Of a stretch of 50,821 bases of DNA, positions 17,049-42,526 are shown piece after piece (within the stretch, counting starts at the first letter, position 1; every line of letters begins with the position of its first letter). This stretch comes from Candidatus Fermentithermobacillaceae bacterium (GTDB lineage: Bacteria; Bacillota; Sulfobacillia; Fermentithermobacillales; Fermentithermobacillaceae): contig DUSU01000099.1 in NCBI GenBank assembly GCA_012842425.1, forward strand, positions 1 to 50,821. The letters run 5' to 3'. A program made the position numbers and the translations under genes. The notes under the pieces are model-generated. The model searched no databases, was not told the origin of the DNA, and was given only the letters and a program-made list of their open reading frames with translations.

Positions 17049-17774
17049 TTGGACCAGCCCATCCTTCGCACTGTTAACCTCCGGAAATCTTTCTTCCTGG
17101 GGCAGACGATCTACGCCGTCAACGATGTGAACCTGCAGGTTGACCAAGGCGAGTTTGTAGTGATCATGGGGCCGTCGGGAAGCGGAAAAAGCACTTTGCT
17201 TGCCCTTCTGGGAGGGTTGGACCGCCCTCAATCAGGCGATGTCATCCTGAGCGGGGAGAGGTACTCCAAACTGTCGGAGAACGGGCTCGCGAGGATCCGC
17301 CGGAACAAAGTCGGGTTCGTGTTCCAGTTCTTCAACCTGATACCTCACCTTACGGCTCTTGAGAATGTGATGCTTCCGATGAGGTTCGGAGGCAAGACAA
17401 AGCGCCAGATGGAAGACCGGGCCAAAGAGCTCTTGGATATCGTCGGTCTGAGCGCCCGAAAGGACCATAAGCCTCTGGAACTCTCAGGAGGCGAGCAGCA
17501 GCGGGTGGCTATCGCGAGGGCACTGGCCAATGAACCCGATGTGGTCCTGGCCGACGAGCCTACGGGAAACCTCGACCGGAAGACATCTTCTGAGATAGGA
17601 GAGATATTCCACAATCTAAACAGTGACAACGGGCAAACCTTCATCGTTGTGTCTCACGACCCGTCGCTCACTAAGTATGCCCACAGAGTCGTGAACATGT
17701 TGGACGGGCAGATCGTCGAGATAACCGGAGGAGGCATGGAGGGGGTCCCTCTCACTACTCCTGCATATCGCTAG
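17049..17774 (+). CDS. MacB/LolD/FtsE-type ABC transporter ATP-binding protein (ATPase-1)
   Basis: Walker [11 protein letters not shown]-loop [10 protein letters not shown], signature LSGGEQQR, Walker [10 protein letters not shown]-loop VVSHD. TTG 17049 follows GGGGGAG (17036-17042) by 6 nt. The ORF track starts at TTG 17034, which has no RBS. Confidence 0.9.
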
Positions 17775-25356: not shown

Positions 25357-25987
25357 GACCATAGCGGTCAGGCGGATCGCGACCTACAAAGCGATTGTCG
25401 TAATCGTTTCGCTGTCAACCGCCCTGGCAGTGGCCGCATCTTTCGTCGTGACCGCGATGACGGAGACAATGATCTGGGCGATGGAGTCCAGGGTAGTGGA
25501 TAGGCAGGCCGACAGCGGGAGGCTTGCGGTGGCGATGGTCCGCCGGGCGAGCCGGGCGGCCTTTCTTCCCTGGCACGTTGTATCGCTGGCAGCGGCAGTT
25601 GTAGCCCTTTCCGGCATCGCTTGCGTGCTTTCCGTGAACTTTGTCGGCAGGAAGAAGAGCCTGGGGATCCTCAAGACGCTCGGTGGAACCACAAGAGACC
25701 TGACGAGGCTCCTTGCGCTTGAGGCTGCTTATACGGCCGCTTTCGGCCTCCCGCTCGGGCTACTGGGGGGCTCCGTCATCACGACAGCGTACTTGGGTAC
25801 ACAGGCTGTGAGTCCATGGTGTTTTGTTGTGTCCATCGTTTTCGGTTTGTTGTCGCTGGCGTCCGGCGTGTACCTACCGGTCAGGCTTGTGAGAAACGCC
25901 AGCTGCGCTCAACTCCTCCTGAACAGATCGGTTTACGCGTTCTCCAACCCGTCGTGCGCCCAGTGCGGTCTTTGCGGCGGATTCTGA
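25295..25987 (+). CDS. Small FtsX-type permease with a minimal extracytoplasmic loop and a Cys-rich C-terminal tail
   Basis: 230 aa with four predicted TM helices. FtsX signature SLGILKTLGGTTRDL. Only ~45 residues separate TM1 and TM2. C-terminal tail NPSCAQCGLCGGF. It overlaps the ATPase-2 end by 62 nt, and AGGGTGGTG lies 5 nt before the ATG. Confidence 0.75.
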   Translation: MVSVARKEKLSVPPVPLHLLKTIAVRRIATYKAIVVIVSLSTALAVAASFVVTAMTETMIWAMESRVVDRQADSGRLAVAMVRRASRAAFLPWHVVSLAAAVVALSGIACVLSVNFVGRKKSLGILKTLGGTTRDLTRLLALEAAYTAAFGLPLGLLGGSVITTAYLGTQAVSPWCFVVSIVFGLLSLASGVYLPVRLVRNASCAQLLLNRSVYAFSNPSCAQCGLCGGF

Positions 25988-26005: not shown

Positions 26006-27823
26006 ATGAGAAGGATTTTGGCGGCTGATGTAGGGAGTACGACGACCAAAGTCACGCTCTTTGTGAAGGATACCGGGGGTTGGAAACTGGCCGGGAAGAT
26101 GGTTGCGCCTACCACGGTAGAGGCCCCCGACCTGGATGTCATGATAGGTCTGCGAAATGCCCTGGCCAAGCTCGAAAGGCGGACGGGGATCAAGCTCCTG
26201 GACGGGGCGAGGCTCCTGGTGCCCGGCTCGGGAGAGGACGGGGCCGACATTTTTGTGGCGACCTCGAGCGCCGGCGGCGGCCTTCAGATGATGGTGACGG
26301 GGCTAGTTGGGACCATGACGGCCGAATCGGCCCACCGGGCGGCTCTCGGAGCGGGCGCAGTGGTGTCTGACGTCGTTTCTTTGGACGACAACCGCACCCT
26401 CATCGAGCGACTGGAAGCCATCAAGGCCATGAGGCCCGACATGATACTGCTGACGGGCGGCACCGATGGCGGAAACGTAAGCGACGTGGCGGCCATCGCC
26501 GAGTACATCTCCATGGCCCGCCCTGAACCGAGGTTCGGCAAGGACTTCAAGATCCCGGTCATCTACGCGGGCAACGTGGATGCCAGGGACATGGTGGACG
26601 AAGTCTTGAGAGAAGCCAATGACGTCACGTACACGGACAACATAAGGCCTGAACTGGAGAGCGAGCGTCTGGGCCCGGCCCGAGAGGCGATCAGCCGGAT
26701 ATTCTTGGAACACGTGATGATGCGGGCCCCGGGTTACGGGACGCTCGTGAACTGGACGGACGGCGCCGTGAGGCCCACACCCGTCGCAGTGGGCGAAGCC
26801 CTCAAGTACGCAGCGGCGTATTTCGGGACGAACGTCCTCGGAGTAGATATTGGAGGCGCCACAACCGATGTATTCTCGGTAATAGAGGGCCGGCTCTACC
26901 GCACGGTGTCCGCCAACCTCGGGATGTCCTACAGCATGGCCAACGTCCTCGCCGAGGCGAAGCCGGATTCGATCCTCAGGTGGCTCCCGTGGGAGTTCGA
27001 CGAGAACATCGTCCGCAACTGGCAGTTCAACAAGATGGTGAGGCCTACGACGCTTCCTCAGACCCTCGAGGACCTCATGCTGGAGCAGGCCGTGGCCACC
27101 GAGGCTTTGCGCCTCTCCCTGGAACACCACAAATCTCTTGTGAGGGGTCTCAAGGGCGTCCACCAGAGACGCACTGTGAGCGACGTATTCTTCCAGACCG
27201 GCACAGGCGAGACCCTGGTGAAGATGATGGAGACCGGAGTCATCATAGGTTCCGGCGGAGCTCTTTCACATGCCCCAAGGTGGGGGCAAGCGGCTCTCAT
27301 CATGATAAACGCTTTCCGGCCCGAAGGAGTGACCGAACTTTGGGTTGACAACCGGTTCCTCCTCCCGCACCTGGGGGTACTGCTCGAGACGGCGAGGGAA
27401 AAAGCGGATGAGGCGATACGGGAGATCCTAACCCGCGAGACCCTCGTCCCCGTGGGTACTGTGATAGCCCCCGTCGGGCCCGCCGCGCGGGATGGAAGCG
27501 TCATAGCCGAAGTCAGGGCCGGAGGGGAATCTCAGTCCGTTACCGCGGGCGACATGAGCGCTCTCAGTGTCCCCGCCGGAGGGTGCGACGTGGAGGTTAT
27601 CCCGAAGAAGGAGTACGACGTCGGAAACGGTCCCGGGGCGGCAGTCCGGTTTGCGGTAAAGAAAGGCATGCCGCACCTTATCTTGGACGGCAGGCATAGA
27701 CCGCTGGACCTCCACAGCGACTCCCGCAGGCGGATTGAGAAGATCAAGAGATGGCACAGGGCCCTGTCGGCGTATCCGGACCAGGATGCGGCGGTAGAGA
27801 CTCTCGCTAAGGAGGTGAGCTGA
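26006..27823 (+). CDS. GlmL/MutL-family ASKHA ATPase, canonical paralog B
   Basis: 605 aa. ADVGSTTTKV, SSAGGGLQMMV, AESAHRAALGAGA, LLTGGTDGGN and VDIGGATTDVFS closely follow what I recall of clostridial GlmL (DFGSTYTKV ... SSAAGGL ... GGTDGGN). It carries a ~140-aa beta-rich C-terminal extension shared with paralog A. Confidence 0.85.
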   Translation: MRRILAADVGSTTTKVTLFVKDTGGWKLAGKMVAPTTVEAPDLDVMIGLRNALAKLERRTGIKLLDGARLLVPGSGEDGADIFVATSSAGGGLQMMVTGLVGTMTAESAHRAALGAGAVVSDVVSLDDNRTLIERLEAIKAMRPDMILLTGGTDGGNVSDVAAIAEYISMARPEPRFGKDFKIPVIYAGNVDARDMVDEVLREANDVTYTDNIRPELESERLGPAREAISRIFLEHVMMRAPGYGTLVNWTDGAVRPTPVAVGEALKYAAAYFGTNVLGVDIGGATTDVFSVIEGRLYRTVSANLGMSYSMANVLAEAKPDSILRWLPWEFDENIVRNWQFNKMVRPTTLPQTLEDLMLEQAVATEALRLSLEHHKSLVRGLKGVHQRRTVSDVFFQTGTGETLVKMMETGVIIGSGGALSHAPRWGQAALIMINAFRPEGVTELWVDNRFLLPHLGVLLETAREKADEAIREILTRETLVPVGTVIAPVGPAARDGSVIAEVRAGGESQSVTAGDMSALSVPAGGCDVEVIPKKEYDVGNGPGAAVRFAVKKGMPHLILDGRHRPLDLHSDSRRRIEKIKRWHRALSAYPDQDAAVETLAKEVS

Positions 27824-27824
27824 A

Positions 27825-29228
27825 ATGGCCTTTAGTTCCAACCTGAGGCTCCTACAGAAAGCCTTTCTAAAGAAGACCCGGAAACTCTCGGTGCCCGGCG
27901 AGGTTCTCGTTACCGAGGGACAGACGGTAAACCCCGGCGACATAATCGCCAAGACGGATCTCGTCCCCGGCGGGCCGCGGGTCATAGATATCACCGCTGA
28001 AGTAGGGAAGAAGCTCACACCCGAGGAGATCGACAAGCTCATCACCAAGAAGCCGGGCGACAAGGTCACGAAGCAAGAAGTGCTGGGGGTATACCGGCGG
28101 GGTTTCTGGGAATCCGGCAGGACCATCTATTCTCCCTGCGACGGTACCATAGAGTACATCTCAAAGACCCAGAGGCGGATTATCATCCGAGAAGACCCCC
28201 GCTCGGCTGCCCCGATGTCGGTCGTGGCGGTCGCCTCCAAACTGTCCATATGGCCTTGGACCATCAGGATGTACACCACGGCCAACGAAGGAGACGAGGT
28301 GTTTGCCGGGCAGGTCCTGGCGGCTGCCTCCAACATTGGCCAAATGGACTACGTCTACTCACCCATGACGGGTGTGGTTGAGAGGATATGCCCGAAGAGC
28401 GGCACCATCACTATTGTGCGGCCCGTAAGGCCGAGCCAGGTCAAGGCCCACCTGGGCGGTGTAGTCACGCAAGTGGTGCCCGAGTACGGGGCGGTAGTCG
28501 AAGCCACCGGCTCGTACCTTGAGGGGGTATTTGGAATCGGAGGAGAGCGGTTCGGTGAGATCGTGCTCGCGACAGACGGGCCGGACGGTGACCTCGACGA
28601 GGCGGGAGTGGATGTATCCTACAAGGGCAAGGTCCTCGTCGCCGGAAGGTTTGTGTCCCTGGAAGCCCTGAAGAAGGCGCGGATGATCGGGGTTTCCGGC
28701 ATCATCACCGGAGGCATCAACAACCTGGACTTGGTGCAGTTCCTGGGCAAGGAGATCATTGTCGGCATCACGGGCCAGGAAGATACGGACCTCACCATCA
28801 TAGTAATGGAAGGCTTCGGCCCTATGCCTATGAACGAGAAAGCCTGGAACCTCTTGGCCTCGAAGGCGGGCAAAGTCGCTTCGATAGACGGGACCACCCA
28901 CATAAGGGCCGGAGCGGTGAGGCCTCAGGTGCTCATAAGCGACGGGGTGCTGGAGCCGGATCCATCGACCGCACCCTGGCCTGAGGAGCAAGTATCCCGG
29001 GCCGACCGCCCGCTCATAACCAACCTTGCCGTTGGCGACAGGGTGAGGTGCGTGAGACGGCCGTACTTCGGGCTCTGGGGCGTCGTCCTGGACCTTCCTT
29101 CTGACCCTCTTCCGGTCGAGTCCGGTTCGCACATGGAAGTGGCGCTGGTGAGGCTCGACGACGGCAGGGAAGTCATGATTGCCGAAGCAAACTTGGAGGT
29201 CTTTAGAGAGATAGACACTCCTGCTTAG
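27825..29228 (+). CDS. Uncharacterised cytoplasmic protein B: two barrel-sandwich-hybrid-like segments, central alpha/beta domain, KOW/SH3-like C-terminus
   Basis: 467 aa. The ATG comes 1 nt after the upstream TGA (TGAaATG) and AAGGAGGTG lies 7 nt upstream. Motifs: VTEGQTVNPGDIIA, YSPCDGTIEYIS, a second GDEVFAGQVL...SPMTGVV segment, MEGFGPMPM, and a C-terminal VGDRVRCV...VALVRLDDGREVMI. Confidence 0.75.
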   Translation: MAFSSNLRLLQKAFLKKTRKLSVPGEVLVTEGQTVNPGDIIAKTDLVPGGPRVIDITAEVGKKLTPEEIDKLITKKPGDKVTKQEVLGVYRRGFWESGRTIYSPCDGTIEYISKTQRRIIIREDPRSAAPMSVVAVASKLSIWPWTIRMYTTANEGDEVFAGQVLAAASNIGQMDYVYSPMTGVVERICPKSGTITIVRPVRPSQVKAHLGGVVTQVVPEYGAVVEATGSYLEGVFGIGGERFGEIVLATDGPDGDLDEAGVDVSYKGKVLVAGRFVSLEALKKARMIGVSGIITGGINNLDLVQFLGKEIIVGITGQEDTDLTIIVMEGFGPMPMNEKAWNLLASKAGKVASIDGTTHIRAGAVRPQVLISDGVLEPDPSTAPWPEEQVSRADRPLITNLAVGDRVRCVRRPYFGLWGVVLDLPSDPLPVESGSHMEVALVRLDDGREVMIAEANLEVFREIDTPA

Positions 29229-29787: not shown

Positions 29788-30372
29788 ATGGCAGAGTCCC
29801 GCGAGAAGGTAAGTGTCCTCATAAGCCAAGCAGAACTTGAGAAGCGCGTCAAAGAACTGGCCGAGCAGATAAACCGGGATTACGAAGGCAGAGACTTGCT
29901 CCTTATCGGTGTCCTAAAGGGAAGCTTCATGTTCCTCGCCGATCTCATGAAGTACCTCCACCCCCAGACTGCCGTTGACTTCATGGGTACCTCAAGCTAC
30001 GGCGCCTCAACCCACACGTCCGGCGAAGTGAGGATAACTAAGGATTTGGAGCATAGCCCTGCCGGCCGCCATGTGCTTCTGGTCGAAGATATCGTTGATA
30101 CCGGGCTTACTCTCAGATATCTGGTGGACACCCTCCGGGCGCGCCAGCCTGCCAGCCTTAAGGTCTGCGCTCTACTGGACAAGCCGGCCAGGCGCAGGGT
30201 GAGGATCGGCCTTGACTACTACGGCTTCATAATCCCCAACGCGTTTGTGGTCGGATACGGCTTGGACTACCAGGAGAGGTACAGGGGCCTTCCTTATGTT
30301 GGAGTGCTTGAGGAGACAGGGGAAGCCGAAGGCGACTCCGGTTCTGACGATACCTCGACGAGCGAGGAGTGA
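29788..30372 (+). CDS. hpt: Hypoxanthine phosphoribosyltransferase
   Basis: 194 aa. LLIGVLKGSFMFLADL; PRPP loop VLLVEDIVDTGLTL; KVCALLDKP; GFIIPNAFVVGYGLDY. It has an unusual acidic ~20-aa C-terminal tail. Confidence 0.9.
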   Translation: MAESREKVSVLISQAELEKRVKELAEQINRDYEGRDLLLIGVLKGSFMFLADLMKYLHPQTAVDFMGTSSYGASTHTSGEVRITKDLEHSPAGRHVLLVEDIVDTGLTLRYLVDTLRARQPASLKVCALLDKPARRRVRIGLDYYGFIIPNAFVVGYGLDYQERYRGLPYVGVLEETGEAEGDSGSDDTSTSEE

Positions 30373-30908
30373 GTGTCTTGTCACCTGATGTTGGGGTAGT
30401 ACTCGGAAGCGCGTCTGACCTAGACAAAGTGAGGCCGGTCTTTGAAACGCTGGAGGAGTTCGGGATTTCCTACGACGTGGCCGTCGTGTCCGCCCATCGC
30501 ACGCCCGACCTGGTGGAGAAGTACGCCCGCAGCGTTTCCGATAGGGGAGTGAAGGTTGTGATCGCAGCCGCAGGGCTGGCGGCCGCCCTACCCGGAGCCC
30601 TTGCGGCGCTGGTGGACGTCCCTGTGGTTGGCTTGCCTCTCGGAGGCGGGCCTGTAATGGGGGTAGACGCGCTGCTTTCGGTTACCGACATGCCGCCGGG
30701 AGTCCCTGTTGCAGGGGTAGGCATCGACTCGGCCAAGAACGCGGCCCTCTTGGCCGCGAGGATACTGGCCGTTCACGATACCGGGCTCAGGACGAGACTC
30801 GAGGTCTTCCGCAAGAAGATGGCTTCCCAGACTCGGGAAAAGGCAGCCGTCATTAAGGAGAAAGGTCTTCCTGCCTGGCAGGCGCCGGATGCGGAGTGGA
30901 GCGGGTAG
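30369..30908 (+). CDS. purE: N5-carboxyaminoimidazole ribonucleotide mutase PurE
   Basis: VGVVLGSASDLD, VVSAHRTPD, IAAAGLAAALPG, PVVGLP. GTG 30369 overlaps the hpt stop. TTG 30378, 8 nt after GAGGAG, is an equally good start. Confidence 0.9.
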   Translation: MSVLSPDVGVVLGSASDLDKVRPVFETLEEFGISYDVAVVSAHRTPDLVEKYARSVSDRGVKVVIAAAGLAAALPGALAALVDVPVVGLPLGGGPVMGVDALLSVTDMPPGVPVAGVGIDSAKNAALLAARILAVHDTGLRTRLEVFRKKMASQTREKAAVIKEKGLPAWQAPDAEWSG

Positions 30909-31012
30909 GCAGTATGCCGCGTTCCTATAGGCCTTTAAAGCACTTAACTTTGGTTCCAAGGTAAGCCGGAGCCAAGATGATATTCTCGTTTCCGATTGGA
31001 GCTGAGTGGGGG

Positions 31013-32416
31013 ATGAGTGGCGAAATCCGTGAGGAATGCGGGGTGTTCGCGGTAGCGGGACACCCGCGGGCAGCTGAACTTTGTTATTACGGCCTGTATG
31101 CCCTGCAGCACCGGGGGCAGGAGTCGGCCGGGATTGCCTGGAGGCAAGGTGGCCGGCTAAGGGTTCATAAGGGGATGGGGCTTGTCTCAGACGTCTTCCC
31201 GCCTGAGAGAGTCGCTTCAATGAACGGCGATATGGCATTGGGTCACGTGCGGTACAGCACCACGGGTGAAAGCAGGATCGAGAACGCCCAGCCGCTCCTC
31301 GTGAAGATGTGGAGGGGGCAGTTCGCCCTGGCCCATAATGGGAACCTCACCAATGCCGCTCGCCTGAGGAGAGAATTGGAGCGCGAAGGTTCCATTTTCC
31401 AAACCACCTCCGACAGCGAGGTGATCCCCCATCTGGTTGCCAAGTCGGGCGATAGGGACCTGCTTGGCGCATATCGGTCGGCCTTTGAAAAGGTGCAAGG
31501 GGCTTATTCTCTCATTGCGCTCACGCCTCACGGACTTTTGGCCGCCAAGGACCCGAGAGGGTTCCGACCGCTCTGCCTCGGAGAACTGGACGGCGCGTAT
31601 GTCATCTCGTCGGAGACTTGCGGTCTTGACGCCATCGGAGCCGAGTTCATAAGGGAGATTGAGCCGGGCGAGATGATTCAGGTCTTGCTCCCTCCTGAAG
31701 GCGAGGCCGGCCGGCCTTCCGTCTGGTCGGTTGCCGGACCGAAGGGCGAAAAGCATGCTCTGTGCGTTTTCGAGTTTATCTACTTCGCGAGGCCGGATTC
31801 GGACATATATGACCTGAACGTCCACAGGGCCCGCAAGGAGCTCGGGCGCAGATTGGCCAGGAAGGGGCCCGTGGAGGCCGACCTGGTGACCGGGGTGCCC
31901 GACTCATCCCTTTCGGCAGCCTCCGGGTTTGCAGAGGAAGCCGGCATTCCTTACGAAACAGGGCTTGTGAAGAACCGTTACATCGGTCGTACATTCATAT
32001 CGCCGGAGCAGTCCCTCAGGGAGCTTGCCGTGAAGATCAAGCTGAACCCTCTGAGGAGCCTTCTGAAGGGCAAGAGGGTTGTCCTCGTGGATGACTCGAT
32101 TGTGAGGGGCACGACTTCCCGGTATATCGTGGGCCTCCTTAGGAGCGCGGGCGCGAAAGAGGTCCATGTGAGGATCAGCTCGCCGCCCTACAAATACCCC
32201 TGCTACTACGGCATAGACACGTCGTCCAAGGGCGAGCTGGCCGCTGCGTCGCAGACGGTCGAAGAGATTAGAGAGGCTATCGGGGCCGACAGCCTTGTGT
32301 TCTTGGATCTGGAAGACCTGCAAGATGTCCTGGGGACCGCAATTGACGGGTTCTGCTACTCCTGCTTCACCGGAGATTACCCGGTCCCCTTTGAAGGATG
32401 CCCAAAGGAGGACTAA
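31013..32416 (+). CDS. purF: Amidophosphoribosyltransferase PurF
   Basis: MSGEIREECGVFAV (short propeptide plus catalytic Cys), HRGQESAGIA, PRPP motif VVLVDDSIVRGTT, C-terminal Cys cluster CYSCFTGDYP. The ORF track starts at 30977, 12 codons upstream. Confidence 0.92.
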   Translation: MSGEIREECGVFAVAGHPRAAELCYYGLYALQHRGQESAGIAWRQGGRLRVHKGMGLVSDVFPPERVASMNGDMALGHVRYSTTGESRIENAQPLLVKMWRGQFALAHNGNLTNAARLRRELEREGSIFQTTSDSEVIPHLVAKSGDRDLLGAYRSAFEKVQGAYSLIALTPHGLLAAKDPRGFRPLCLGELDGAYVISSETCGLDAIGAEFIREIEPGEMIQVLLPPEGEAGRPSVWSVAGPKGEKHALCVFEFIYFARPDSDIYDLNVHRARKELGRRLARKGPVEADLVTGVPDSSLSAASGFAEEAGIPYETGLVKNRYIGRTFISPEQSLRELAVKIKLNPLRSLLKGKRVVLVDDSIVRGTTSRYIVGLLRSAGAKEVHVRISSPPYKYPCYYGIDTSSKGELAAASQTVEEIREAIGADSLVFLDLEDLQDVLGTAIDGFCYSCFTGDYPVPFEGCPKED

Positions 32417-32420
32417 CTGG

Positions 32421-33401
32421 ATGATCTATTCGAAGAAGCCGGGAGTGAACGTGGGGAGAATCGCCGAACTTGCCTCCCGGTCGTACGGAAAGGGAGTTAT
32501 CTCAGGGGTCGGTGGGTTCTCAGGCCTTTTTGACCCATCGGTCTTCGGGTTCAAAGATATGGTCCTGGCGGCGGGCGCCGATGGAGTCGGCACCAAAGTC
32601 AAGATCGCGCAGGCCCTGGATAAGCACGATACGGTTGGGATAGACCTGGTCGCCATGAACGCCGACGATGTGGTTACCTGCGGTGCCCAACCGCTTTTCT
32701 TCCTGGACTATATCGCCATCGGCAAGTCAAGGCCGGGCGTTGTCGAAGAGATCGTCAAAGGCATAGTTGAGGGTTGCGAGATGGCAGGATGTGCCCTCCT
32801 CGGAGGCGAAACGGCCACCATGCCCGCCATGTACGAGGAAGGAGAGTACGACCTTGCAGGTTTCTGCGTCGGTGGAGTTGAGCGGGGGAAGTTCATAGAC
32901 GGTTCAGGCATAGTGCCGGGCGACGTCGTCTTGGGCCTCGAATCTTCCGGGATCCACTCCAACGGCTATACGACCGCGCGCAGGGTCCTCCTTGATGAAG
33001 CCAAGATGCGCCTCGAGGACCATATCGCAGAGCTGGGCAGGACTCTCGGGGAAGAGCTCCTTGAGCCCACTCGGATATATGCAAAAGCCCTGGTGGATGC
33101 GATGAAGCGCGTAACGCTCAAGGGCATGGCCCACGTCACCGAGGGCGGAATCTTGGGCAACATCCGGAGGGTGCTTCCTCAGGGCACGGATTTCGCGAAG
33201 ACCGGCACCTGGCCGGTGCCCCCGATTTTCGATATCATCCGGAAGACCGGCAATCTCGATGATGCAGAGATGGACCGCGTGTTCAACATGGGTATCGGCA
33301 TGCTGGTTATCGTGAAACCGGAAGATGCCGGGGAGCTTACGGCGGTCCTTAAGGGGCACGGCGTACGCGCCCATCACATAGGAGAGGTAGTGACAGCATG
33401 A
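32421..33401 (+). CDS. purM: Phosphoribosylformylglycinamidine cyclo-ligase PurM
   Basis: GADGVGTKVKIA, DLVAMNADDV, GGETATMP. ATG 32421 follows AAGGAGGA by 8 nt and lies 4 nt after the purF stop. The ORF-track start at 32295 is inside purF. Confidence 0.92.
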   Translation: MIYSKKPGVNVGRIAELASRSYGKGVISGVGGFSGLFDPSVFGFKDMVLAAGADGVGTKVKIAQALDKHDTVGIDLVAMNADDVVTCGAQPLFFLDYIAIGKSRPGVVEEIVKGIVEGCEMAGCALLGGETATMPAMYEEGEYDLAGFCVGGVERGKFIDGSGIVPGDVVLGLESSGIHSNGYTTARRVLLDEAKMRLEDHIAELGRTLGEELLEPTRIYAKALVDAMKRVTLKGMAHVTEGGILGNIRRVLPQGTDFAKTGTWPVPPIFDIIRKTGNLDDAEMDRVFNMGIGMLVIVKPEDAGELTAVLKGHGVRAHHIGEVVTA

Positions 33402-34045
33402 GCGCCTCCAAACTGAAGCTGGGGGTCCTCGTGTCCGGACGTGGGACAAACCTCCAGGCCATACTGGACGGATGCGCCAGGGGGGAGATCCCGGCCGAAG
33501 TGGCCGTAGTCATCTCCAACAGGCCGGGCGTGCCCGCTCTGGAAAGGGCGCAAAAGGCGGGCGTGCCGGCTTTGACCATACCCCACGCGAGTTACGGAAA
33601 GTGGCCTGCGTGCCGGACCGCCTACGAGCGCGACCTGGTCCGAACGCTCACCGAGTGGGGAGTCCAGCTCGTTGTCTGCGCGGGGTACGACCGCTTGGCA
33701 GGAGAGACTCTCCTTGAGGCCTTCAGGGGACGTATCATTAACATCCATCCTTCTCTTTTGCCCTCTTTTCCGGGCCTCCACGCTCAGGCCGACGCCTTGT
33801 CTTACGGCGTGAAAGTGACCGGGGCAACCGTGTTTTTCGTAGATGAATCCCTCGACGGCGGTCCCATAATCACGCAGGAAGCTGTCCGCGTTGAGGAAGG
33901 GGATACGGTAGAGTCCCTTTCCGCAAGGATACTTGAGGTTGAGCACCGTATCCTGCCCCTGGCGATCACCTTGATCGCTCAGAGGAGAGCGGTCTTGGAG
34001 GGGCGAAGGGTAAGGATCCTCGATAGAACCGGAGGTGCATCGTAG
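33398..34045 (+). CDS. purN: Phosphoribosylglycinamide formyltransferase PurN
   Basis: VLVSGRGTNLQAILD, INIHPSLLPSFPG, GATVFFVDESLDGGPII. ATGA overlap with the purM stop. Confidence 0.92.
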   Translation: MSASKLKLGVLVSGRGTNLQAILDGCARGEIPAEVAVVISNRPGVPALERAQKAGVPALTIPHASYGKWPACRTAYERDLVRTLTEWGVQLVVCAGYDRLAGETLLEAFRGRIINIHPSLLPSFPGLHAQADALSYGVKVTGATVFFVDESLDGGPIITQEAVRVEEGDTVESLSARILEVEHRILPLAITLIAQRRAVLEGRRVRILDRTGGAS

Positions 34046-35601
34046 TGCGTAGGGCTATAGTCAGCGTGGCCGACAAGACAGGCATTATAGAGTTCGCCGC
34101 CCAGCTTGTGGAGATGGGGTGGGAAGTGATCTCAACCGGAGGAACGGCCCGCTTCCTAAAAGAAGGCGGAGTGACGGTCACCGAAGTCCAGGAACTCACC
34201 GGGTTTCCGGAGATCCTGGGAGGCAGGGTAAAGACCCTTCATCCGAAGATCCACGGGGGTATCTTGGCCCGACGGGACAACATATCCGACATGGCGGAGC
34301 TCAACGCCCATCAAATCACTCCCGTCGATATGGTTGTCTGCAACCTGTATCCTTTTGTGAAGACCGCCACCAGGCCGTCGGCCACTCTTGACGAAATCAT
34401 CGAGGAAATTGATATCGGCGGCCCAACGCTCCTTAGAGCCTCGGCGAAGAACTGGAACTGGGTTATCACGGTATGCAACCCTGCAAGGTACAACGAAATC
34501 GCCAGGCAGATAAGGCTTACGGGAGACGTCGACAAGCTCACCAGGCGCCAGCTGGCAGTTGAGGTGTTCAACCACACGGCCACGTACGACGCTGCCATAG
34601 CCTCTCACTTGGGCGGCCTGTGGAAGGGCTGGCCCCTGGATTTTCCCGAGGAACTGGCCTTTGGGTACAAGAAGACGTTCTCTCTAAGATACGGCGAAAA
34701 CCCGCACCAGAAGGCTGCATTCTATGAGCCCGTTATGGGGAGCGATATCCCCTCCCTGGCAGGCAGGCAGATCCAGGGCAAAGAGCTTTCCTACAACAAC
34801 ATAAACGACGCCGACAACGCCCTGAGGACTGTCTGGGACTTCCAGCCCCCGGCTTGCGTGGCGGTGAAGCACGCCACTCCTTGCGGCGTCGCGACGGGCG
34901 CCACGGCCAAAGAGGCCTTTGAGCGCGCTTTCGAAGCCGACCCCGTGTCCATTTTCGGCGGGGTCGTGGCTTTCAACTGCCCCGTCGACAAAGAGACGGC
35001 GGAAGCAATGAAAAAAGTGTTCCTCGAGATCCTTATGGCCCCCGAGTTCACGCCCGAGGCGCTGGAGGTCCTGAAGAACAAGAAGGACCTCAGGATTATC
35101 CCGATAGCCCCGGCCGGCTATGCAGGCGGGGCGAAGGCACCGGTACGCTACTCCGTAAGGTCTGCCATGGGCGGCATACTCGTGCAGGAGATCGATACTC
35201 TCTTGCCCGTGGACGAAGACTGGCAGGTAGTCTCCAAGCGGTCTCCGACAGACCGGGAGATAAGGGATCTCCGGTTTGCCATGACCGTGTGCAAGCATGT
35301 GAAATCCAACGCCATCGTACTGGCCAAGGATGCCGCGACGGTTGGCATCGGCGGCGGACAACCCAACAGGGTTGACTGCGTGCGGATCGCGGTGGAGAGG
35401 GCCAAGGAGAAGGCGCGCGGGTCGGTAATGGCCTCGGACGCTTTCTTCCCGTTCCCCGACTCTGTGATCGAGGCCGCCAAGGCCGGGGTATCGGCCATAG
35501 TGCACCCGGGCGGGTCCATCAGGGACGCCGAGTCTATAGCGGTGGCGGATGCCCACAATATCGCGATGGTCGTGAGCGGAAAGCGCCACTTCCTGCACTG
35601 A
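34045..35601 (+). CDS. purH: Bifunctional AICAR transformylase / IMP cyclohydrolase PurH
   Basis: RAIVSVADKTGI (MGS-like domain), RVKTLHPKIHGGIL, LRYGENPHQ, KHATPCG, PGGSIRD. The GTG start overlaps the purN TAG by 1 nt. Confidence 0.95.
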   Translation: MRRAIVSVADKTGIIEFAAQLVEMGWEVISTGGTARFLKEGGVTVTEVQELTGFPEILGGRVKTLHPKIHGGILARRDNISDMAELNAHQITPVDMVVCNLYPFVKTATRPSATLDEIIEEIDIGGPTLLRASAKNWNWVITVCNPARYNEIARQIRLTGDVDKLTRRQLAVEVFNHTATYDAAIASHLGGLWKGWPLDFPEELAFGYKKTFSLRYGENPHQKAAFYEPVMGSDIPSLAGRQIQGKELSYNNINDADNALRTVWDFQPPACVAVKHATPCGVATGATAKEAFERAFEADPVSIFGGVVAFNCPVDKETAEAMKKVFLEILMAPEFTPEALEVLKNKKDLRIIPIAPAGYAGGAKAPVRYSVRSAMGGILVQEIDTLLPVDEDWQVVSKRSPTDREIRDLRFAMTVCKHVKSNAIVLAKDAATVGIGGGQPNRVDCVRIAVERAKEKARGSVMASDAFFPFPDSVIEAAKAGVSAIVHPGGSIRDAESIAVADAHNIAMVVSGKRHFLH

Positions 35602-35614
35602 GGAGAGGACTCAT

Positions 35615-36961
35615 ATGAACGTTTTGGTAACCGGCTCGGGCGCCAGAGAGCACGCTCTGGCTTGGAGGATAGCCCGCAGCCCCTCCGTCCAACGCGTTTT
35701 TGTGGCGCCCGGCAACCCCGGAGTAGCCGCCATGGCTAACGCTGAGAACGTGTCCCTAGACCTGAAGCCGGAAGGGTACGGCGAGATAGCCCGGTTCTGC
35801 AGGGAAAAGGGTATTGAGCTCGTCGTCGTTGGCCCCGAGAACCACCTGGCCGACGGCCTGGCCGATTATCTGAGGGAGGCCGGCATCAGCGTGTTTGGCC
35901 CGGGCAAGCAAGGGACCATGCTGGAGGCCAGCAAGAGCTTCGGGATGGACTTCGCCCGCCGCCACGGAATCCCCCATCCGAAGTCCGAGAGTTTTGAGAC
36001 CTGCGATGAAGCCCTGGACTACGTGAGGAACATGCCCGGTCCCTGGGTCATCAAGGCCGACGGGCTTGCCCTGGGTAAGGGCGTGACGATAGCCACGGAC
36101 CGGGACGAAGCGCTTGAGACCGTTCGGAAGGTCATGAGTGAGGGAGCTTACGGAGAAGCCGGTCGCCGCGTTGTGTTCCAGGAGTTCCTAGAGGGCAGAG
36201 AGGTTACCGCCATGTGCCTCACCGACGGTGACTACATGATACCCCTCCCGCTCGCAAGGGACCACAAGCGGGTGGGTGAAGGGGACGTTGGGCCGATGAC
36301 CGGCGGCATGGGAGCGTTTTCGCCTGTCGATCTGGAGCCTTACGGGTCCGGACTGGAGGACGCCATCAAGACGGAAGTCCTGGAGAGGGCCGTGGCAGGG
36401 CTCAAGGCGGACGGGATAGACTACCGGGGCCTCTTGTACGCGGGCCTCATGATCACCCGGAGCGGTCCCAAGGTGCTCGAGTTCAACGTGCGGTTCGGCG
36501 ATCCCGAGACCCAGTGCGTGCTCCCGCGGCTGGAAGGCGACTTCGCCGAAGCTCTCCTATCCTGCGCTAAGGGAACGCTCAGGAGATATGCCTCGGGCGC
36601 TCCGGCCTCTTCTGGAGGCCCTCTCAGGGTTAGGGAAGAGGCTTGCGCGACGGTCGTTATGGCGTCCGGGGGGTATCCGGGGTCCTACCCAAAGGGTATT
36701 CCTATCTATGGCCTGACCGGAGATGAGGATGGAAGGCCGGCTCTCGCTTGTAAAGCCGGTTCCGGCGGACGAGACAGAGAGACAATCGTCTTCCACGCCG
36801 GGACGAAAGTTGACGGCGGAGTCCTGGTCACCTCGGGCGGGAGGGTCTTGAGCGTGACCGCCCTGGCTCCTTCCCTGGAAGAGGCCTTGAGACTTGCGTA
36901 TGACAAGGTTTCGTCCATAAGATTTGAGGGAGCTTTCTACCGGAGGGACATAGGAAGGTAG
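35615..36961 (+). CDS. purD: Phosphoribosylamine-glycine ligase PurD
   Basis: MNVLVTGSGAREHALAW, APGNPG, ATP-grasp VIKADGLALGKGV, GPMTGGMGAFSP, EFNVRFGDPE. Confidence 0.95.
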   Translation: MNVLVTGSGAREHALAWRIARSPSVQRVFVAPGNPGVAAMANAENVSLDLKPEGYGEIARFCREKGIELVVVGPENHLADGLADYLREAGISVFGPGKQGTMLEASKSFGMDFARRHGIPHPKSESFETCDEALDYVRNMPGPWVIKADGLALGKGVTIATDRDEALETVRKVMSEGAYGEAGRRVVFQEFLEGREVTAMCLTDGDYMIPLPLARDHKRVGEGDVGPMTGGMGAFSPVDLEPYGSGLEDAIKTEVLERAVAGLKADGIDYRGLLYAGLMITRSGPKVLEFNVRFGDPETQCVLPRLEGDFAEALLSCAKGTLRRYASGAPASSGGPLRVREEACATVVMASGGYPGSYPKGIPIYGLTGDEDGRPALACKAGSGGRDRETIVFHAGTKVDGGVLVTSGGRVLSVTALAPSLEEALRLAYDKVSSIRFEGAFYRRDIGR

Positions 36962-38015: not shown

Positions 38016-38044
38016 TTGAACTGGATTGTGAGTAGAGGTACAAT
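38016..38044 (+). promoter_or_regulatory. Candidate sigma-A promoter of the four-gene membrane operon
   Basis: TTGAAC (38016-38021), 17 nt, TACAAT (38039-38044). This would give a ~200-nt leader before GTG 38254. Confidence 0.45.
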
Positions 38045-38253
38045 AAAAGTTTAGCCATCCTTAGGGTTACGTCAGCAGGAATTATGCATACAAGGACGAA
38101 TATGATTTCAGCAAGGGCACGGAACTTCTCCGGACGCACCGGAGCCGTAACTTTAGACATGGCTTAGACACAGCACCTCACCCCGCACTCCTTTGTGTGT
38201 TTCCTGTGTTGTTGTTTTCGTGCCTCCAACTCACTGTTAGGAGGTGAAACAGA

Positions 38254-39084
38254 GTGTCAGAGTTTCTGCTTGCTGCTGAAGCCGTTCCACCCAAGCTGGG
38301 CATCTTCCGCCCCGTCAATAACACGGTCTTCTCGGTGCTCATAAGCATCGTCATGATCATCCTCGTGTACGTGATGATCAACAGGGCCAAGAAGGGCGAG
38401 AAGATTCCGGAGATCCGCAAGATCCCCGGCATCGAGGCGTTCGAGGAGGCCATCGGCCGCGCAACCGAGATGGGCAAGCCGGTCCACATGACCGACTACA
38501 GCACCGCTCTCGGTGACGACTCCACCTTCGCTTACTGGTCGTTCCTGGCGTACATCGCCAAGCAGTGCGCCCAGTACGACACCCGGTTCATCGCGACCGA
38601 CGCTAACTACCTGGTTAACGTCGTGAACCAGGAAATCGTTAAGCAGGCTTACTTGGAGGCCGGTAAGCCCGACGCCTACAACCCCGACGATATCAGGTTC
38701 ATCGCCGGTTCCCAGTTCGCTTGGGCGATGGGCGTCGCGGGTCTTGTCGCGCGCGAGAAGCCGGCGGCTCAGTTCCTGGTCGGTTACTTCTACGCTGAGT
38801 CTCTGATCCTCGCCGAGGCCGGAAACCTCGTGGGGGCCATCCAGGTAGCTGCTGCCAGCTCCCCTGCCCAGATCCCGTTCTTCGTCGCCGCTTGCGACTA
38901 CACCATGATTGGTGAGGAGCTTTACGCCGGCGCCGCCTATGTCTCCAGAGACCCGGTCATTATGGGTACTGTGGTTGCTCAGGACATAGTCCGCGTCTCA
39001 CTGTACGTGATCATCCTTCTCGGCGGCATCGTCCAGTGGCTGTCGCCGCAGAACAATTTCATCAGGAACTTCATCAACTTCTAG
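38254..39084 (+). CDS. Uncharacterised bitopic membrane protein (module A)
   Basis: 276 aa. GTG start 7 nt after AGGAGGTG (38239-38246). N-terminal TM (VFSVLISIVMIILVYVMI), a ~200-aa soluble domain, and a C-terminal TM (VSLYVIILLGGIVQWL). No family recognised. Confidence 0.8.
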   Translation: MSEFLLAAEAVPPKLGIFRPVNNTVFSVLISIVMIILVYVMINRAKKGEKIPEIRKIPGIEAFEEAIGRATEMGKPVHMTDYSTALGDDSTFAYWSFLAYIAKQCAQYDTRFIATDANYLVNVVNQEIVKQAYLEAGKPDAYNPDDIRFIAGSQFAWAMGVAGLVAREKPAAQFLVGYFYAESLILAEAGNLVGAIQVAAASSPAQIPFFVAACDYTMIGEELYAGAAYVSRDPVIMGTVVAQDIVRVSLYVIILLGGIVQWLSPQNNFIRNFINF

Positions 39085-39117
39085 CGCCTTTTGCACGCGA
39101 GTTGATGTTGGAAGGAG

Positions 39118-39780
39118 GTGCAGTCGGTGAGAAAAGAGATCCCGTTCGCCCTAAGCTTGATCTTCGCGGCCTTCAGGTTCTGCCTTGAGGCCTTTGAGGG
39201 TCCTTACAACTATGCTCTGGCATCCGGTGACAAACTTCTGAACGCCATGTCATGGGCGATGACCTTCATGTCCTGTGGTGCGCTTTTCCTGGGAGCGCTG
39301 AACCTTATCCGGATTCACTCCAACAACATCCGGAGGAAGAGGCCATACTGGCAGTTCAGTGTCTACCTCCTGGCTATCCTAGTGTACCAGTCCATCATGG
39401 GTCTGGCGACGCACCATACGGCTCCCGTGTATGCCTGGCCGTATAACGCTATCTACCTCCCGTTGGACGCCACGATGTTCTCGCTCCTTGCGTTCTACAT
39501 CGCTTCGGCGGCCTACAGAGCTTTCCGAGTGAGGAACGTCGATGCGGCCGTCATGCTCACGTCAGCGTTCATTCTGATGCTCGGTAACGTTCCGATTGGT
39601 GAAGTTATCTGGGGTCCTGACAAGTTCTTGGGCGGCTTCGCCGGAATCAAGAACTGGATCCTGCGCGTTCCCAACGCCGCCGGCAACAGGGCCATTACTT
39701 TGGGTATCTTCTTGGGAATCATGGCCACTCAGAGCCGTATACTCCTCGGCATCGAGAGGCGTCACCTTGGTCAAGAATAG
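39118..39780 (+). CDS. Uncharacterised polytopic membrane protein (module B)
   Basis: 220 aa with ~6 hydrophobic segments. The GTG start follows GGAAGGAGG. The C-terminal AGNRAITLGIFLGIMATQSRILLG resembles the C-terminus of the fourth gene. Confidence 0.8.
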   Translation: MQSVRKEIPFALSLIFAAFRFCLEAFEGPYNYALASGDKLLNAMSWAMTFMSCGALFLGALNLIRIHSNNIRRKRPYWQFSVYLLAILVYQSIMGLATHHTAPVYAWPYNAIYLPLDATMFSLLAFYIASAAYRAFRVRNVDAAVMLTSAFILMLGNVPIGEVIWGPDKFLGGFAGIKNWILRVPNAAGNRAITLGIFLGIMATQSRILLGIERRHLGQE

Positions 39781-39816
39781 CCTGACGCTCACTTAGGTAG
39801 CGGAAAGGAGGGAATA

Positions 39817-40671
39817 GTGTTGAAGTTCCTGGAGAGGTTCGATCAGATAAACCCCCAGATAGTATACTTGCTTATGGCGGTTGCCTTGATATTCCCGGTG
39901 CTTAAACCCATCGGATTGCCCCTGAGCATCGACCAGCAGCTCACAATGCCGGTTTACCAGTGGATCGAGAGCCTGCAGCCCGGCGACATCGTTATATTCG
40001 ATGCCGCATACGGTGGCGGTTCTGACTCGGAGCTTGGTCCCCAGCTCAAGGCTTGGTTCACCCACTGCATGATGAAGGGCGTCAAGGTGGTAGGTTTGGC
40101 GCAGTGGGAGGCCGGCGCCACTCTGGCTTACAACTCGCTGAAGGCCTTGTCGGAGCAGCTTAAGGCCGAAGGCATTCCCTGCGAGTACGGCGTCGACTGG
40201 GTCTTCCCCGGATACAAAGCCGGTGGCGGTCCCACCTGGAGATCCATGCAGGACGACTTCTGGGCCGCTTGCGGAAACGTTGACTGGGAGAAGACAGACT
40301 TCAGCCAGCTCCCGCTTTTGCAGAGGCTCAAGAAGTGGACCCCCGAGACTGTTAAGGGAATTATGTGCTTCTCTGCAGGTAGCCCGGGTATCCCCACGTT
40401 CACTCAGTACTTCGCCGATCACAAGCTGTACGTGGGTGACGTGGCGGTACAGGTCGCGGGAACCAGCAACCTGCTCCGTTCTGGTCAGGTTAAGGGTATT
40501 ATCCCCGGTCTGAGCGGCGCCGCTCAGTACGAGAAGCTGATTGGCCGTCCGGGACTCGGCGTCAAGCTCATGGACGCCCAGTCGCTGGGGCACTCGATCA
40601 TCATAATTTTGGTTATCCTTGGCAACATCGGTTACAGGCTCAAGATGCGTAACACGCAGAGGCGCGCCTAG
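39817..40671 (+). CDS. Uncharacterised bitopic membrane protein (module A')
   Basis: 284 aa, GAAAGGAGGGA RBS. Same architecture as the first gene (N-terminal TM, ~220-aa soluble domain, C-terminal TM SIIIILVILGNIGY). GDIVIFDAAYGGGSDSELGPQLKAWFTHCMMKGVKVV aligns loosely with GKPVHMTDYSTALGDDSTFAYWSFLAYIAKQCAQYDTRFI of gene 1. Confidence 0.8.
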   Translation: MLKFLERFDQINPQIVYLLMAVALIFPVLKPIGLPLSIDQQLTMPVYQWIESLQPGDIVIFDAAYGGGSDSELGPQLKAWFTHCMMKGVKVVGLAQWEAGATLAYNSLKALSEQLKAEGIPCEYGVDWVFPGYKAGGGPTWRSMQDDFWAACGNVDWEKTDFSQLPLLQRLKKWTPETVKGIMCFSAGSPGIPTFTQYFADHKLYVGDVAVQVAGTSNLLRSGQVKGIIPGLSGAAQYEKLIGRPGLGVKLMDAQSLGHSIIIILVILGNIGYRLKMRNTQRRA

Positions 40672-40704
40672 CGTCACCTGAAAGGGAAAGCGAGGTGAAA
40701 CTAA

Positions 40705-41307
40705 ATGTCTAGAACTCAAGTTTGGGTTGCGGCGCTAGCCACTTTGGCGTGTTACAGCTACCTGTACAAGGAGAACTTTTTCTTCAGGTTGGCAGAGCAC
40801 ACCATGATACCCCTGGCCGTTGCGCACGTCTTGACAACGGGTTGGCACAACACGTTCCTTCCCTACATCGAGACCCATGTCAAGGGCAAGGGCTGGTGGT
40901 GGTTCTGGATCTTCTTCGTGATGGGAGTTCTGTACTACGCCAGGTTCCTGCCGGCAAGGTGGGCATGGATAACCAGATATCCCATCTCAGTTAGTGTAGG
41001 ATGGTCGCTCGGATACTACTTCTCGCTGTTCCCGAGGCAGTACGGTGTTCAGATCGCCGACGCCGTGAGGGACCTTGGTGTGTTCGAGAACATCCTATTC
41101 TTCCTCATGTTCGCCACGTCAATGATGTACTTCTTCTTGACGGTCGGCGGCAACTCCAAACCCTTCCGCACAGCAGCGCAGTGGGGTAGATGGATCCTCA
41201 TGGTCGGTTTCGGCGCAAGCTTCGGCAACACCGTTTCCGGCCGTATCTCGCTCTTCCTTGGCAGGCTCTCGTTCCTCCTCACGGAGTGGCTGGGAGTGGC
41301 CCTGTAA
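40705..41307 (+). CDS. Uncharacterised polytopic membrane protein (module B')
   Basis: 200 aa with ~6-7 hydrophobic segments, rich in aromatic residues (GWWWFWIFFVMGVLYY). AAGCGAGGTGA RBS. C-terminal VSGRISLFLGRLSFLL. Confidence 0.8.
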   Translation: MSRTQVWVAALATLACYSYLYKENFFFRLAEHTMIPLAVAHVLTTGWHNTFLPYIETHVKGKGWWWFWIFFVMGVLYYARFLPARWAWITRYPISVSVGWSLGYYFSLFPRQYGVQIADAVRDLGVFENILFFLMFATSMMYFFLTVGGNSKPFRTAAQWGRWILMVGFGASFGNTVSGRISLFLGRLSFLLTEWLGVAL

Positions 41308-41330
41308 GAGATCGGTTTTCTGGGAGAGAA

Positions 41331-41365
41331 GAAGCCGGCGGATTAGCCGCCGGCTTCCTGTTTGT
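41331..41365 (+). terminator. Rho-independent terminator of the membrane operon
   Basis: GAAGCCGGCGG (41331-41341) pairs with CCGCCGGCTTC (41347-41357) around a 5-nt loop, followed by CTGTTTGTG. It begins 24 nt after the TAA. Confidence 0.7.
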
Positions 41366-41479: not shown

Positions 41480-42109
41480 CTAGCTGATGCCTTCGAGCAC
41501 GAGAGAAGACCAAGACTCGAACTTGCCCAAGAGCCCGAGTTTTGATATCTCGACCCACGCCCCAAGCATTTTGTCGGTTTCTCTAACTGCAAGGATAGGC
41601 GCGGGGAGATGGACGACCGTTACGAGGCCCAAGTGGACCCTTCCTACGGCGTTCTTGTCGTCGTTTAGGAATCCCAGTACGGATATGGGTGGCTTTCCCG
41701 GGAAGCATACCTCTTCTTTGATCTCGCGCTGGGTATTGATTGTGACCAGGGCCTTGAGGTCGGCAATCCTACGTCTTCCCGGCCAGGTGATCTCTTTTGC
41801 CGGGTTCATGTGGCCTCCCACACCGATCGAAAGAAGCCCGTGGAGCCTCGACTCGCCCTGAGTTCCCAATCTTTTCATGACGAAGACCCGTCGGTCGGAC
41901 ACAAATAGGGTATAGGAGATGAGCTGCTTCATGGCCGGGTTTTCCTCAAGCTCCGGTCTCGGTCTGAAGACGCTTTTCCTGGCCAAGAACCGCCAGATCT
42001 CCGGTGAGTCTCTGCGCACTCCCCGCCACTCGCCGACCGCAGCGTACAGTTCTGCGGTTGGGACGGAGAGCACAAGTTCGTTCGGTACTGTGTGTTGTCC
42101 GGCGGTCAC
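41480..42109 (-). CDS. YmaB/COG4112-like Nudix-fold phosphoesterase
   Basis: 209 aa. KQLISYTLFV...VFVMKRL...GESRLHGLLSIGVGGHMNP...REIKEEV resembles, from memory, the YmaB-type MutT-family proteins. The GTG start abuts the upstream stop (TAAGTG). Confidence 0.5.
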   Translation of the reverse strand: MTAGQHTVPNELVLSVPTAELYAAVGEWRGVRRDSPEIWRFLARKSVFRPRPELEENPAMKQLISYTLFVSDRRVFVMKRLGTQGESRLHGLLSIGVGGHMNPAKEITWPGRRRIADLKALVTINTQREIKEEVCFPGKPPISVLGFLNDDKNAVGRVHLGLVTVVHLPAPILAVRETDKMLGAWVEISKLGLLGKFESWSSLVLEGIS

Positions 42110-42526
42110 TTAAGAACCAACCTCTTTCTCATCCAGGTTATACTTCAGTAGATCAAGTTCCTCTGTAAGCAGCCTGTCTCCTGCCGCGACAGTGAATGTG
42201 TATGTCTTTCCTATTTCAACAAGACGCCGGAAGGCCTTGTATAGATCCCTTCCTACGCGGCTTGCCGCATAGATCGAAGCGGTCAGGTGAGAGGGCTCCG
42301 CGTAGGCGAATACCTGGACGAGCACATCGCCTCCCGCGGGACGTACCCGCACCTTTACCTGTGTGTCGCCCACATAGACCTTCGGACCGCTCTCAAACGG
42401 ACGCGTCCCGTTCTGAAGAGATAGCACTATCTTTGCTGCCTGTTTGGCCTCTTCTTGACTCGGATAGCACACTGCGATGAAGGGGGACGGGAGAGGGTCA
42501 TCCGGGGTGTATTGTACGGCCCCCAC
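42110..42526 (-). CDS. Hypothetical protein (138 aa)
   Basis: The ORF is co-directional with and abuts the Nudix-like gene. No motif recognised. Coding-like composition. Confidence 0.55.
   Translation of the reverse strand: MGAVQYTPDDPLPSPFIAVCYPSQEEAKQAAKIVLSLQNGTRPFESGPKVYVGDTQVKVRVRPAGGDVLVQVFAYAEPSHLTASIYAASRVGRDLYKAFRRLVEIGKTYTFTVAAGDRLLTEELDLLKYNLDEKEVGS

Follow-up and report, generated by a model that had tools for sequence, protein, structure and literature searches.

A conserved four-gene membrane cassette with a DUF6754 subunit and its genetic linkage to a GlmL-type actin-fold ATPase

Introduction

Contig DUSU01000099.1 of a Candidatus Fermentithermobacillaceae bacterium harbors a short run of genes for membrane proteins, which raises the question of what these proteins do and whether they belong to any system that is already known. 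The window, by which we mean the whole stretch of DNA that was analyzed (positions 1-50,821), had earlier been read from its letters alone. That sequence-only reading described four plus-strand genes, termed here g1 to g4 in order, as a membrane operon of uncharacterised function whose products would form a heteromeric complex. The operon is confirmed here, its function is still uncharacterised, and a heteromeric complex remains its natural reading. The four genes make up an order-fixed cassette that is spread over a large part of the bacterial domain, and in many phyla it lies immediately downstream of genes for a GlmL/MutL-type actin-fold ATPase and a barrel-sandwich-hybrid protein. Relatives of both are encoded elsewhere in the window, the closer one of the barrel-sandwich type being a 467-residue protein referred to as p467; these linked genes were overlooked in the sequence-only reading.

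An order-fixed cassette carried by at least 590 species genomes, including those of many candidate phyla, and often situated beside housekeeping genes, shows that something is missing from the basic picture of bacterial cell biology. Should the link with the ATPase be functional, it would amount to a new mode of powering a membrane complex. The analysis also connects window genes that lie 9-20 kb from each other and that annotation would otherwise leave as unrelated hypotheticals. The availability of cultivable carriers and of confident AlphaFold models makes the system directly testable.

The four-gene cassette

The four genes are co-directional and are flanked by a promoter-like site and a strong terminator. 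Their features are as follows.

38254-39084, plus strand: g1, 276 amino acids (aa), Pfam DUF6754
39127-39780, plus strand: g2, 217 aa, GTG start, predicted to have six transmembrane (TM) helices, no Pfam family
39820-40671, plus strand: g3, 283 aa, TTG start, no Pfam family
40705-41307, plus strand: g4, 200 aa, polytopic, no Pfam family

The same four genes are found in an independent gene call on the same contig, which derives from a biogas-fermenter metagenome, and homologues of each gene occur across phyla. Two of the starts were refined. The start of g2 is the GTG at 39127, which gives the N-terminus MRKEIPF found in its homologues, and not 39118; that of g3 is the TTG at 39820, as indicated by the independent gene call and the homologues, and not 39817. 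The starts of the longest open reading frames (ORFs) of these two genes, 39118 and 39817, overlap the genes' own ribosome-binding sites. Because of the refined starts, the intergenic gaps measure 42, 39 and 33 nt, and the spacing of 33-36 nt given previously has to be corrected. All four ribosome-binding-site strings that had been quoted are present.

The codon usage of g1 is the most strongly biased among 41 window genes, with a third-position GC content (GC3) of 0.82 and an effective number of codons (Nc) of 38.6, and this is counted in favor of the model presented below. The values for g3 (Nc 42.1) and g4 (44.3) place them moderately among the more biased genes, whereas g2 (51.6) is ordinary, so that the strong bias once attributed to all four genes applies fully to g1, in part to g3 and g4, and not to g2. 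No ribosomal protein genes were identified among the annotated genes of the window.

Distribution and conservation of gene order

An exhaustive search recovered 1991 representative clusters related to g1, and a scan of one genome per species showed that at least 590 genomes encode this protein. The arrangement of the genes was followed in 80 loci fetched from diverse phyla, whose six-frame ORFs were searched with hidden Markov models (HMMs) of all four proteins. In these loci g1 is followed directly by g2, g3 and g4 in 75 of 94 copies. Twelve of the other 19 copies are cut by contig ends, three reflect artefacts of ORF sorting at loci where all four genes are present, and four are extra copies located beside a full cassette (L020, L031, L034 and L071). 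The order g1-g2-g3-g4 is thus kept in essentially all 80 loci; conservation of this order elsewhere was a check that had been named beforehand.

At least 20 bacterial phyla contain the cassette. Represented in the set of loci are Bacillota, Planctomycetota (anammox lineages and Phycisphaerae), WOR-3, Cloacimonadota, Latescibacterota, Zixibacteria, Sumerlaeota, Fermentibacteria, Ignavibacteria, Gemmatimonadota and Armatimonadota, among others. Among the matches listed, the closest relatives are metagenome-assembled genomes (MAGs) of Candidatus Fermentithermobacillaceae within the Bacillota, one of which (L001) is 92% identical over g1. The carriers also include cultivable organisms, namely Symbiobacterium thermophilum (MAG locus L008) and a MAG labelled Gemmatimonas (L059). 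A word-indexed search returned 66 homologues of g3 and 39 of g4; these low counts reflect the limited sensitivity of that search and do not mean that the families are rare.

Tandem copies of the whole cassette are frequent and are found in L005, L019, L032, L042, L043 and L064, and three copies are present in L063. In L059, two g3 genes lie in tandem (11348-13140).

Searches for known relatives

The sequence-only reading had recognized no family in any of the four proteins. For g1 this no longer holds, as the protein is a full-length member of Pfam DUF6754 (PF20539), which it matches with an E-value of 4e-88 and a score of 295.3 bits against a gathering cut-off of 27, over positions 11-249 of the 257 in the model. 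Most members of DUF6754 have a long N-terminal extension, which g1 of the window lacks. The family covers one of the four subunits and is catalogued only as a domain of unknown function. The PF20539 model did not match g3 or any of 32 g3 homologues, and neither Pfam nor NCBIfam contained a match for g2, g3 and g4; scanning 29-35 homologues of each protein as well yielded scattered chance hits only.

Searches of the PDB by sequence and by profile with the four families, p467 and the ATPase returned nothing with an E-value below 0.1. When the models of g1 and g3 were compared with the PDB by Foldseek, no match reached an E-value of 1e-3 or lower, and the structures retrieved were generic Rossmann, TIM and SIS-like folds with TM-scores of at most 0.35. 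A literature search found no paper naming DUF6754, PF20539 or PF13941, the last being the Pfam family of the ATPase, and nothing relevant that combined GlmL with the membrane. Thus far g2, g3 and g4 belong to no curated family, and no subunit has a solved or characterised relative. The system as a whole matches no known kind and is catalogued solely as one domain of unknown function.

Several specific identities were considered and set aside. A defence island was rejected, because the PADLOC models gave no match for g1-g4, the ATPase or p467 and because of the housekeeping neighbors and the very broad distribution. For g2 and g4, rhomboid, CAAX, DedA and energy-coupling factor (ECF) S-component proteins were rejected, since no Pfam match was obtained and the motifs of these families were judged not to fit. 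An ABC transporter is likewise not indicated: g1-g4 gave no Pfam match to ABC_tran or to a permease, and ABC genes occur solely as neighbors.

Predicted structure and membrane topology

The AlphaFold2 models of g1 and g3 are confident, with a predicted local distance difference test (pLDDT) score of 87.7 and a predicted TM-score (pTM) of 0.80 for g1, and values of 93.3 and 0.88 for g3. The two models have the same order of elements: a TM helix and a further helix come first, six strand-helix units follow, and a long TM helix forms the C-terminus. This order agrees with the layout of TM segment, soluble domain and TM segment assigned to these proteins at the outset. Hydropathy bears out the polytopic nature of g2 and g4.

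Orientation was predicted from family-wide counts of lysine and arginine (K/R), according to the positive-inside rule. In g1, a short N-terminus would lie outside, followed by TM1, a cytoplasmic six-stranded alpha/beta domain and TM2, with K/R counts of 4.1 after TM1 versus 1.8 before it. The cytoplasmic domain of g1 is the most conserved part of the system. In g3, both termini are predicted to be inside, with a K/R-rich cytoplasmic tail (3.4), which would place its own six-stranded alpha/beta domain on the extracytoplasmic side. From hydropathy and K/R counts, g2 is predicted to have six TM helices with both termini inside, and contains the invariant motif DATMFSLLAF.IASAAYRAFR, whereas g4 is predicted to have its N-terminus outside, with six TM helices and a C-terminal amphipathic helix.

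The predicted topology fits three independent observations. The first is the N-terminal extension of g1, present in 117 of the top g1 representatives, with a median length of 294 aa and a range of about 110 to 670 aa (5th-95th percentile); by a simple pattern, 70 of these 117 extended proteins begin with a signal-peptide-like sequence. The second is a weak match to a carbohydrate-binding module in one g1 protein that has a C-terminal extension. The third is found in a planctomycete locus (L040, 1249-2595), where a g3-like alpha/beta domain (positions 36-217 of the g3 HMM, independent E-value 2e-32) is inserted in g2, at the loop that connects TM3 with TM4 and is predicted to lie outside. This fusion hints at contact between g2 and g3 and at an outside location for the g3 domain. 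In L060 and L067, g2 has insertions of 80-90 aa at the same loop.

Are the four genes a duplicated pair?

The genes had been interpreted as an A-B-A'-B' arrangement, that is, as an ancient tandem duplication of a two-gene module. For g1 and g3 the comparison is suggestive. BLASTP found nothing between them, and the hhalign probability was 1.2% with the first alignments. Alignments of 86-95 sequences taken from the loci raised it to 13.6%, adding the secondary structure of the AlphaFold2 models gave 24%, and larger, differently weighted alignments gave 1.7%. At relaxed settings, the alignment giving 13.6% is colinear over the whole length, with strands 1-3 in register when compared with the modelled secondary structure. 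Its score of 29.7 exceeds the mean of block-shuffled controls (20.6, standard deviation 1.0, maximum 23.3) and reversed controls (17.7-18.8). The two proteins thus have a common architecture and probably a common fold; their homology is suggestive, the sequence similarity being weak and not robust across alignments.

No relationship was detectable between g2 and g4 in sequence and profile comparisons. BLASTP again found nothing, and hhalign gave probabilities of 0.6%, 7.5% (not colinear) and 0.7%, no better than a cross-control of g2 against g3. A simple duplication is further weakened because the soluble domains of g1 and g3 are predicted to lie on opposite sides of the membrane and because no free-standing two-gene module was seen in the 80 loci. 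Overall, the evidence supports a tandem duplication only in part.

Should g1 and g3 prove to be related, their predicted orientations in the membrane would be opposite. Pairs of oppositely oriented paralogues within one operon are known, for instance the EmrE-type pairs, RnfA/RnfE and NqrD/NqrE. Like these, g1 and g3 have the same layout and a predicted opposite orientation. In contrast to them, the inverted unit would here include a soluble domain of 200 aa, and the homology of g1 and g3 is putative.

A linked actin-fold ATPase and barrel-sandwich protein

Neighboring gene families were found by clustering the ORFs that flank the cassette in the 80 loci, and the resulting HMMs were then run on the window. 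Across phyla, a recurring order was observed: p160, p150, a GlmL/MutL-like ATPase, p378, g1, g2, g3, g4. Of the four additional families, p160 and p150 are small membrane proteins, the ATPase (PF13941) has about 600 aa, and p378 is a barrel-sandwich-hybrid protein, the family to which p467 belongs. In several loci (L024, L041 and L078, for example), the stop-to-stop ORF of p378 adjoins or overlaps that of g1. The ATPase or p378 is present in 16 of the 27 loci that have at least 5 kb on each side.

In the window, the HMMs detected the following genes.

26006-27823, plus strand: GlmL/MutL-type actin-fold (ASKHA) ATPase, 605 aa, matching PF13941 with an E-value of 9e-117 and the cassette-neighbor HMM with 1e-230
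27825-29228, plus strand: p467, barrel-sandwich-hybrid protein of the p378 family, 467 aa, matching the neighbor HMM with an E-value of 2e-122
17790-20722, plus strand: a second, more divergent pair, comprising a GlmL-like ATPase (17790-19511, E-value 2e-67) and a p378-like protein (19490-20722, E-value 4e-43)

The families p150 and p160 were also searched for in the window and are absent from it. ABC genes precede each pair, in the form of an ABC ATPase (17034-17774) and of an FtsX-ABC-FtsX arrangement (23187-25987). A regulator with helix-turn-helix and tetratricopeptide repeat regions (20822-22909) is located between the two pairs, and an M20 peptidase (15749-16942) lies upstream.

GlmL/MutL proteins are accessory proteins of the B12-dependent glutamate and ornithine mutases, and the window ATPase shares with them PF13941 and the actin-like/hydantoinase-A fold family. 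It differs from GlmL proper in scoring far below the cut-offs of the NCBIfam equivalogs NF040745 and NF040744 (230 bits against 475, and 221 against 600) and in being longer by some 130 residues at the C-terminus. Its annotated neighbors are genes for membrane proteins and include no mutase gene, and on this ground a role of the pair as a mutase reactivase was rejected.

Association with Opp-type importers

Two Latescibacterota loci (L021 and L045) have the order MutL-SBP5-OppB-OppC-p378-g1-g4-OppD-OppF, in which the genes of a complete Opp-type importer are interspersed among those of the larger cluster; a TonB-receptor-like gene of roughly 1200 aa follows OppD-OppF. In loci from Sumerlaeota, Anammoxibacter and Gemmatimonadota (L028, L044 and L059), OppD/F follows g4, accompanied in one case by a substrate-binding protein, and no permease-like ORF was found within these three fetched loci. 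Genes of Opp/Dpp-type ABC importers are interspersed in the cluster in Latescibacterota and come after g4 in three further phyla. However, g1-g4 have no homology to ABC permeases or ATPases, and the window operon contains no ABC ATPase.

A model for the cassette and its alternatives

We propose that g1-g4 represent the membrane core of a widespread multi-subunit system and that their products would assemble into one heteromeric inner-membrane complex. Within this complex, g2 (six TM helices) and g4 (six or seven) would supply the polytopic body, and the cytoplasmic domain of g1 would dock the GlmL-type actin-fold ATPase together with its barrel-sandwich partner, which in the window are encoded at 26006-29228. 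ATP-driven changes would be relayed across the membrane to the g3 domain on the outer face, where the large secreted N-terminal extension of g1, in those phyla that have one, would join the outer module. The job of the system would be transport or transmembrane transduction, possibly tied to the uptake of nutrients of the peptide type.

Taken as a whole, this model of an ATPase-coupled complex for transport or transduction is put forward tentatively, at a little under an even chance, and its parts differ in strength. The operon, the fixed gene order, the folds, the genetic linkage and the lack of known relatives are shown directly; the complex, its topology, its coupling to the ATPase and the transport role are inferred. 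The heteromeric inner-membrane complex is the part in which we are most confident; it is based on the fixed co-occurrence of the genes, the duplication of the whole cassette and the domain insertion in g2. Cooperation of the cassette with the GlmL-type ATPase and p378 by way of the very conserved g1 domain is plausible, at roughly even odds. The output is the least certain part: it could be transport, with a peptide-like nutrient as the cargo, or transmembrane transduction.

A number of points weigh against the model. The evidence for complex formation and for any activity is indirect, and the predicted topology is derived from the positive-inside rule alone. The proteins lack a transporter signature and a conserved cofactor motif, and their structural matches do not go beyond generic folds (TM-score below 0.36, E-value above 1e-3). 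In the window itself, the stronger ATPase pair is parted from g1 by a pur operon, QueT and a NusG-II gene, and the linkage to Opp genes is limited to 5 of the 80 loci. Many genomes carry the cassette by itself amid housekeeping genes, and no ATPase lies within 10 kb of it, so that coupling to the ATPase may not be obligatory; from the same observation it follows that the four genes constitute an autonomous core.

This last observation also bears on the strongest of the alternatives, which is that the cassette is a self-contained secondary transporter or channel, with g2 and g4 forming the pathway, g1 and g3 having regulatory or gating roles, and the ATPase being merely a frequent neighbor. Such a transporter would explain the solitary cassettes found among housekeeping genes in several genomes, the absence of the ATPase from 11 of the 27 well-flanked loci, and the paralogous tandem cassettes, which are typical of transporters. 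It accounts less well for the abutting or overlapping ORF coordinates of p378 and g1, for the recurrence of the eight-gene order in many phyla, and for the fact that conservation is strongest in the cytoplasmic domain of g1, pointing to either catalysis or a conserved partner in the cytoplasm. We regard such a transporter as unlikely.

The secreted extensions of g1 lead to another possibility, in which the proteins serve in envelope biogenesis, in anchoring or as a trans-envelope scaffold, with the g1 extension and the g3 domain organizing the periplasmic or outer layers. These extensions are highly variable and include coiled-coil-like and propeller-like sequences, the cassette adjoins core housekeeping operons, and some loci have a gene like that of a TonB-dependent receptor after it. 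Yet the Bacillota versions, including that of the window, have no extension at all and still retain all four genes, and no peptidoglycan-binding or OmpA-like domains were found. A scaffold is considered rather unlikely.

The barrel-sandwich protein raises the question of whether the complex follows the plan of Rnf or Na+-NQR and is redox- or ion-translocating. In p467 there are weak matches to RnfC_N (2e-7) and NQRA_N (2.5e-4), as well as to Biotin_lipoyl and PTS_EIIA_1, and the sizes and topology of the cassette subunits recall NqrD/E plus NqrC. The likeness is architectural only, comprising paired six-TM subunits of about 200 aa, a bitopic subunit with an outside domain, and a cytoplasmic barrel-sandwich subunit resembling NqrA/RnfC. 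When judged by sequence motifs, the cassette fails every test: g2 and g4 have no Rnf-Nqr Pfam match, no cysteine occupies an invariant or almost invariant column in g2, g3 or g4, and the cluster has no Fe-S or flavin subunits. The attachment motif for flavin mononucleotide is SGAT, whereas g3 has SGAA, in which the threonine of the motif is missing. A complex of this type is considered improbable.

Finally, that four functionally unrelated membrane proteins simply share an operon and form no complex is most improbable, for even though the complex itself is a proposal, the genes strictly co-occur in a fixed order over at least 20 phyla, are duplicated as whole cassettes, and in L040 have a g3-like domain inside g2.

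Returning to the ATPase-coupled complex, the cassette with its GlmL-type ATPase, barrel-sandwich protein and two small membrane proteins could in its strongest form define a class of inner-membrane machine that had gone unrecognized. Such a machine would be composed of two related, oppositely inserted halves, and its motor would be an actin-fold ATPase in place of one of the ABC, P-type or AAA+ kind. We see this as a possibility that is on balance doubtful. If it were true, the machine would be carried by hundreds of mostly uncultivated species over at least 20 phyla.

Expression signals and neighboring genes

The regulatory features of the operon are as follows.

38016-38044, plus strand: promoter candidate, sigma-70-like, TTGAAC-17-TACAAT
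38046-38253, plus strand: 5' leader of g1, about 200 nt, analyzed by alignment of five Fermentithermobacillaceae-type loci and by RNAalifold
41331-41365, plus strand: intrinsic terminator, with a hairpin (41331-41357) of GAAGCCGGCGG-ATTAG-CCGCCGGCTTC followed by the T-rich tail CTGTTTGT

The promoter candidate and the strong terminator, both described in the first reading, were recovered in a pattern scan. Alignment shows that the -10 region GGTACAATAAAAG is kept in the relatives L001-L003. Promoter matches of the TTGAAC-17-TACAAT type numbered three, against 1.6 expected from shuffles, which is a slight excess only. The terminator stem consists of 11 bp, 9 of which are GC pairs.

Within the leader, a block at about 38076-38125 (AGGAWTT...GACGAATATGATT..CAAGG.CAYG) is kept within the lineage, in five Fermentithermobacillaceae-type loci that include L001-L004. 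RNAalifold predicts pairing of a CACCTC anti-Shine-Dalgarno segment in the leader with the ribosome-binding site of g1, for which the evidence is weak, and an Rfam scan of the leader matched no family. The leader may represent a lineage-specific translational control element.

In the Fermentithermobacillaceae lineage, a purine-biosynthesis operon (29788-36961 in the window) lies directly upstream of the cassette. The gene purF is also the immediate upstream neighbor of g1 in WOR-3 and Latescibacterota loci (L018 and L027), and this adjacency could be a coincidence or a recurring association. On the other side of the cassette, 3' of the terminator, two convergent genes of 209 and 138 aa are found on the minus strand (41480-42526). 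Neither has a Pfam or NCBIfam match, and both are also called on the matching contig L083.

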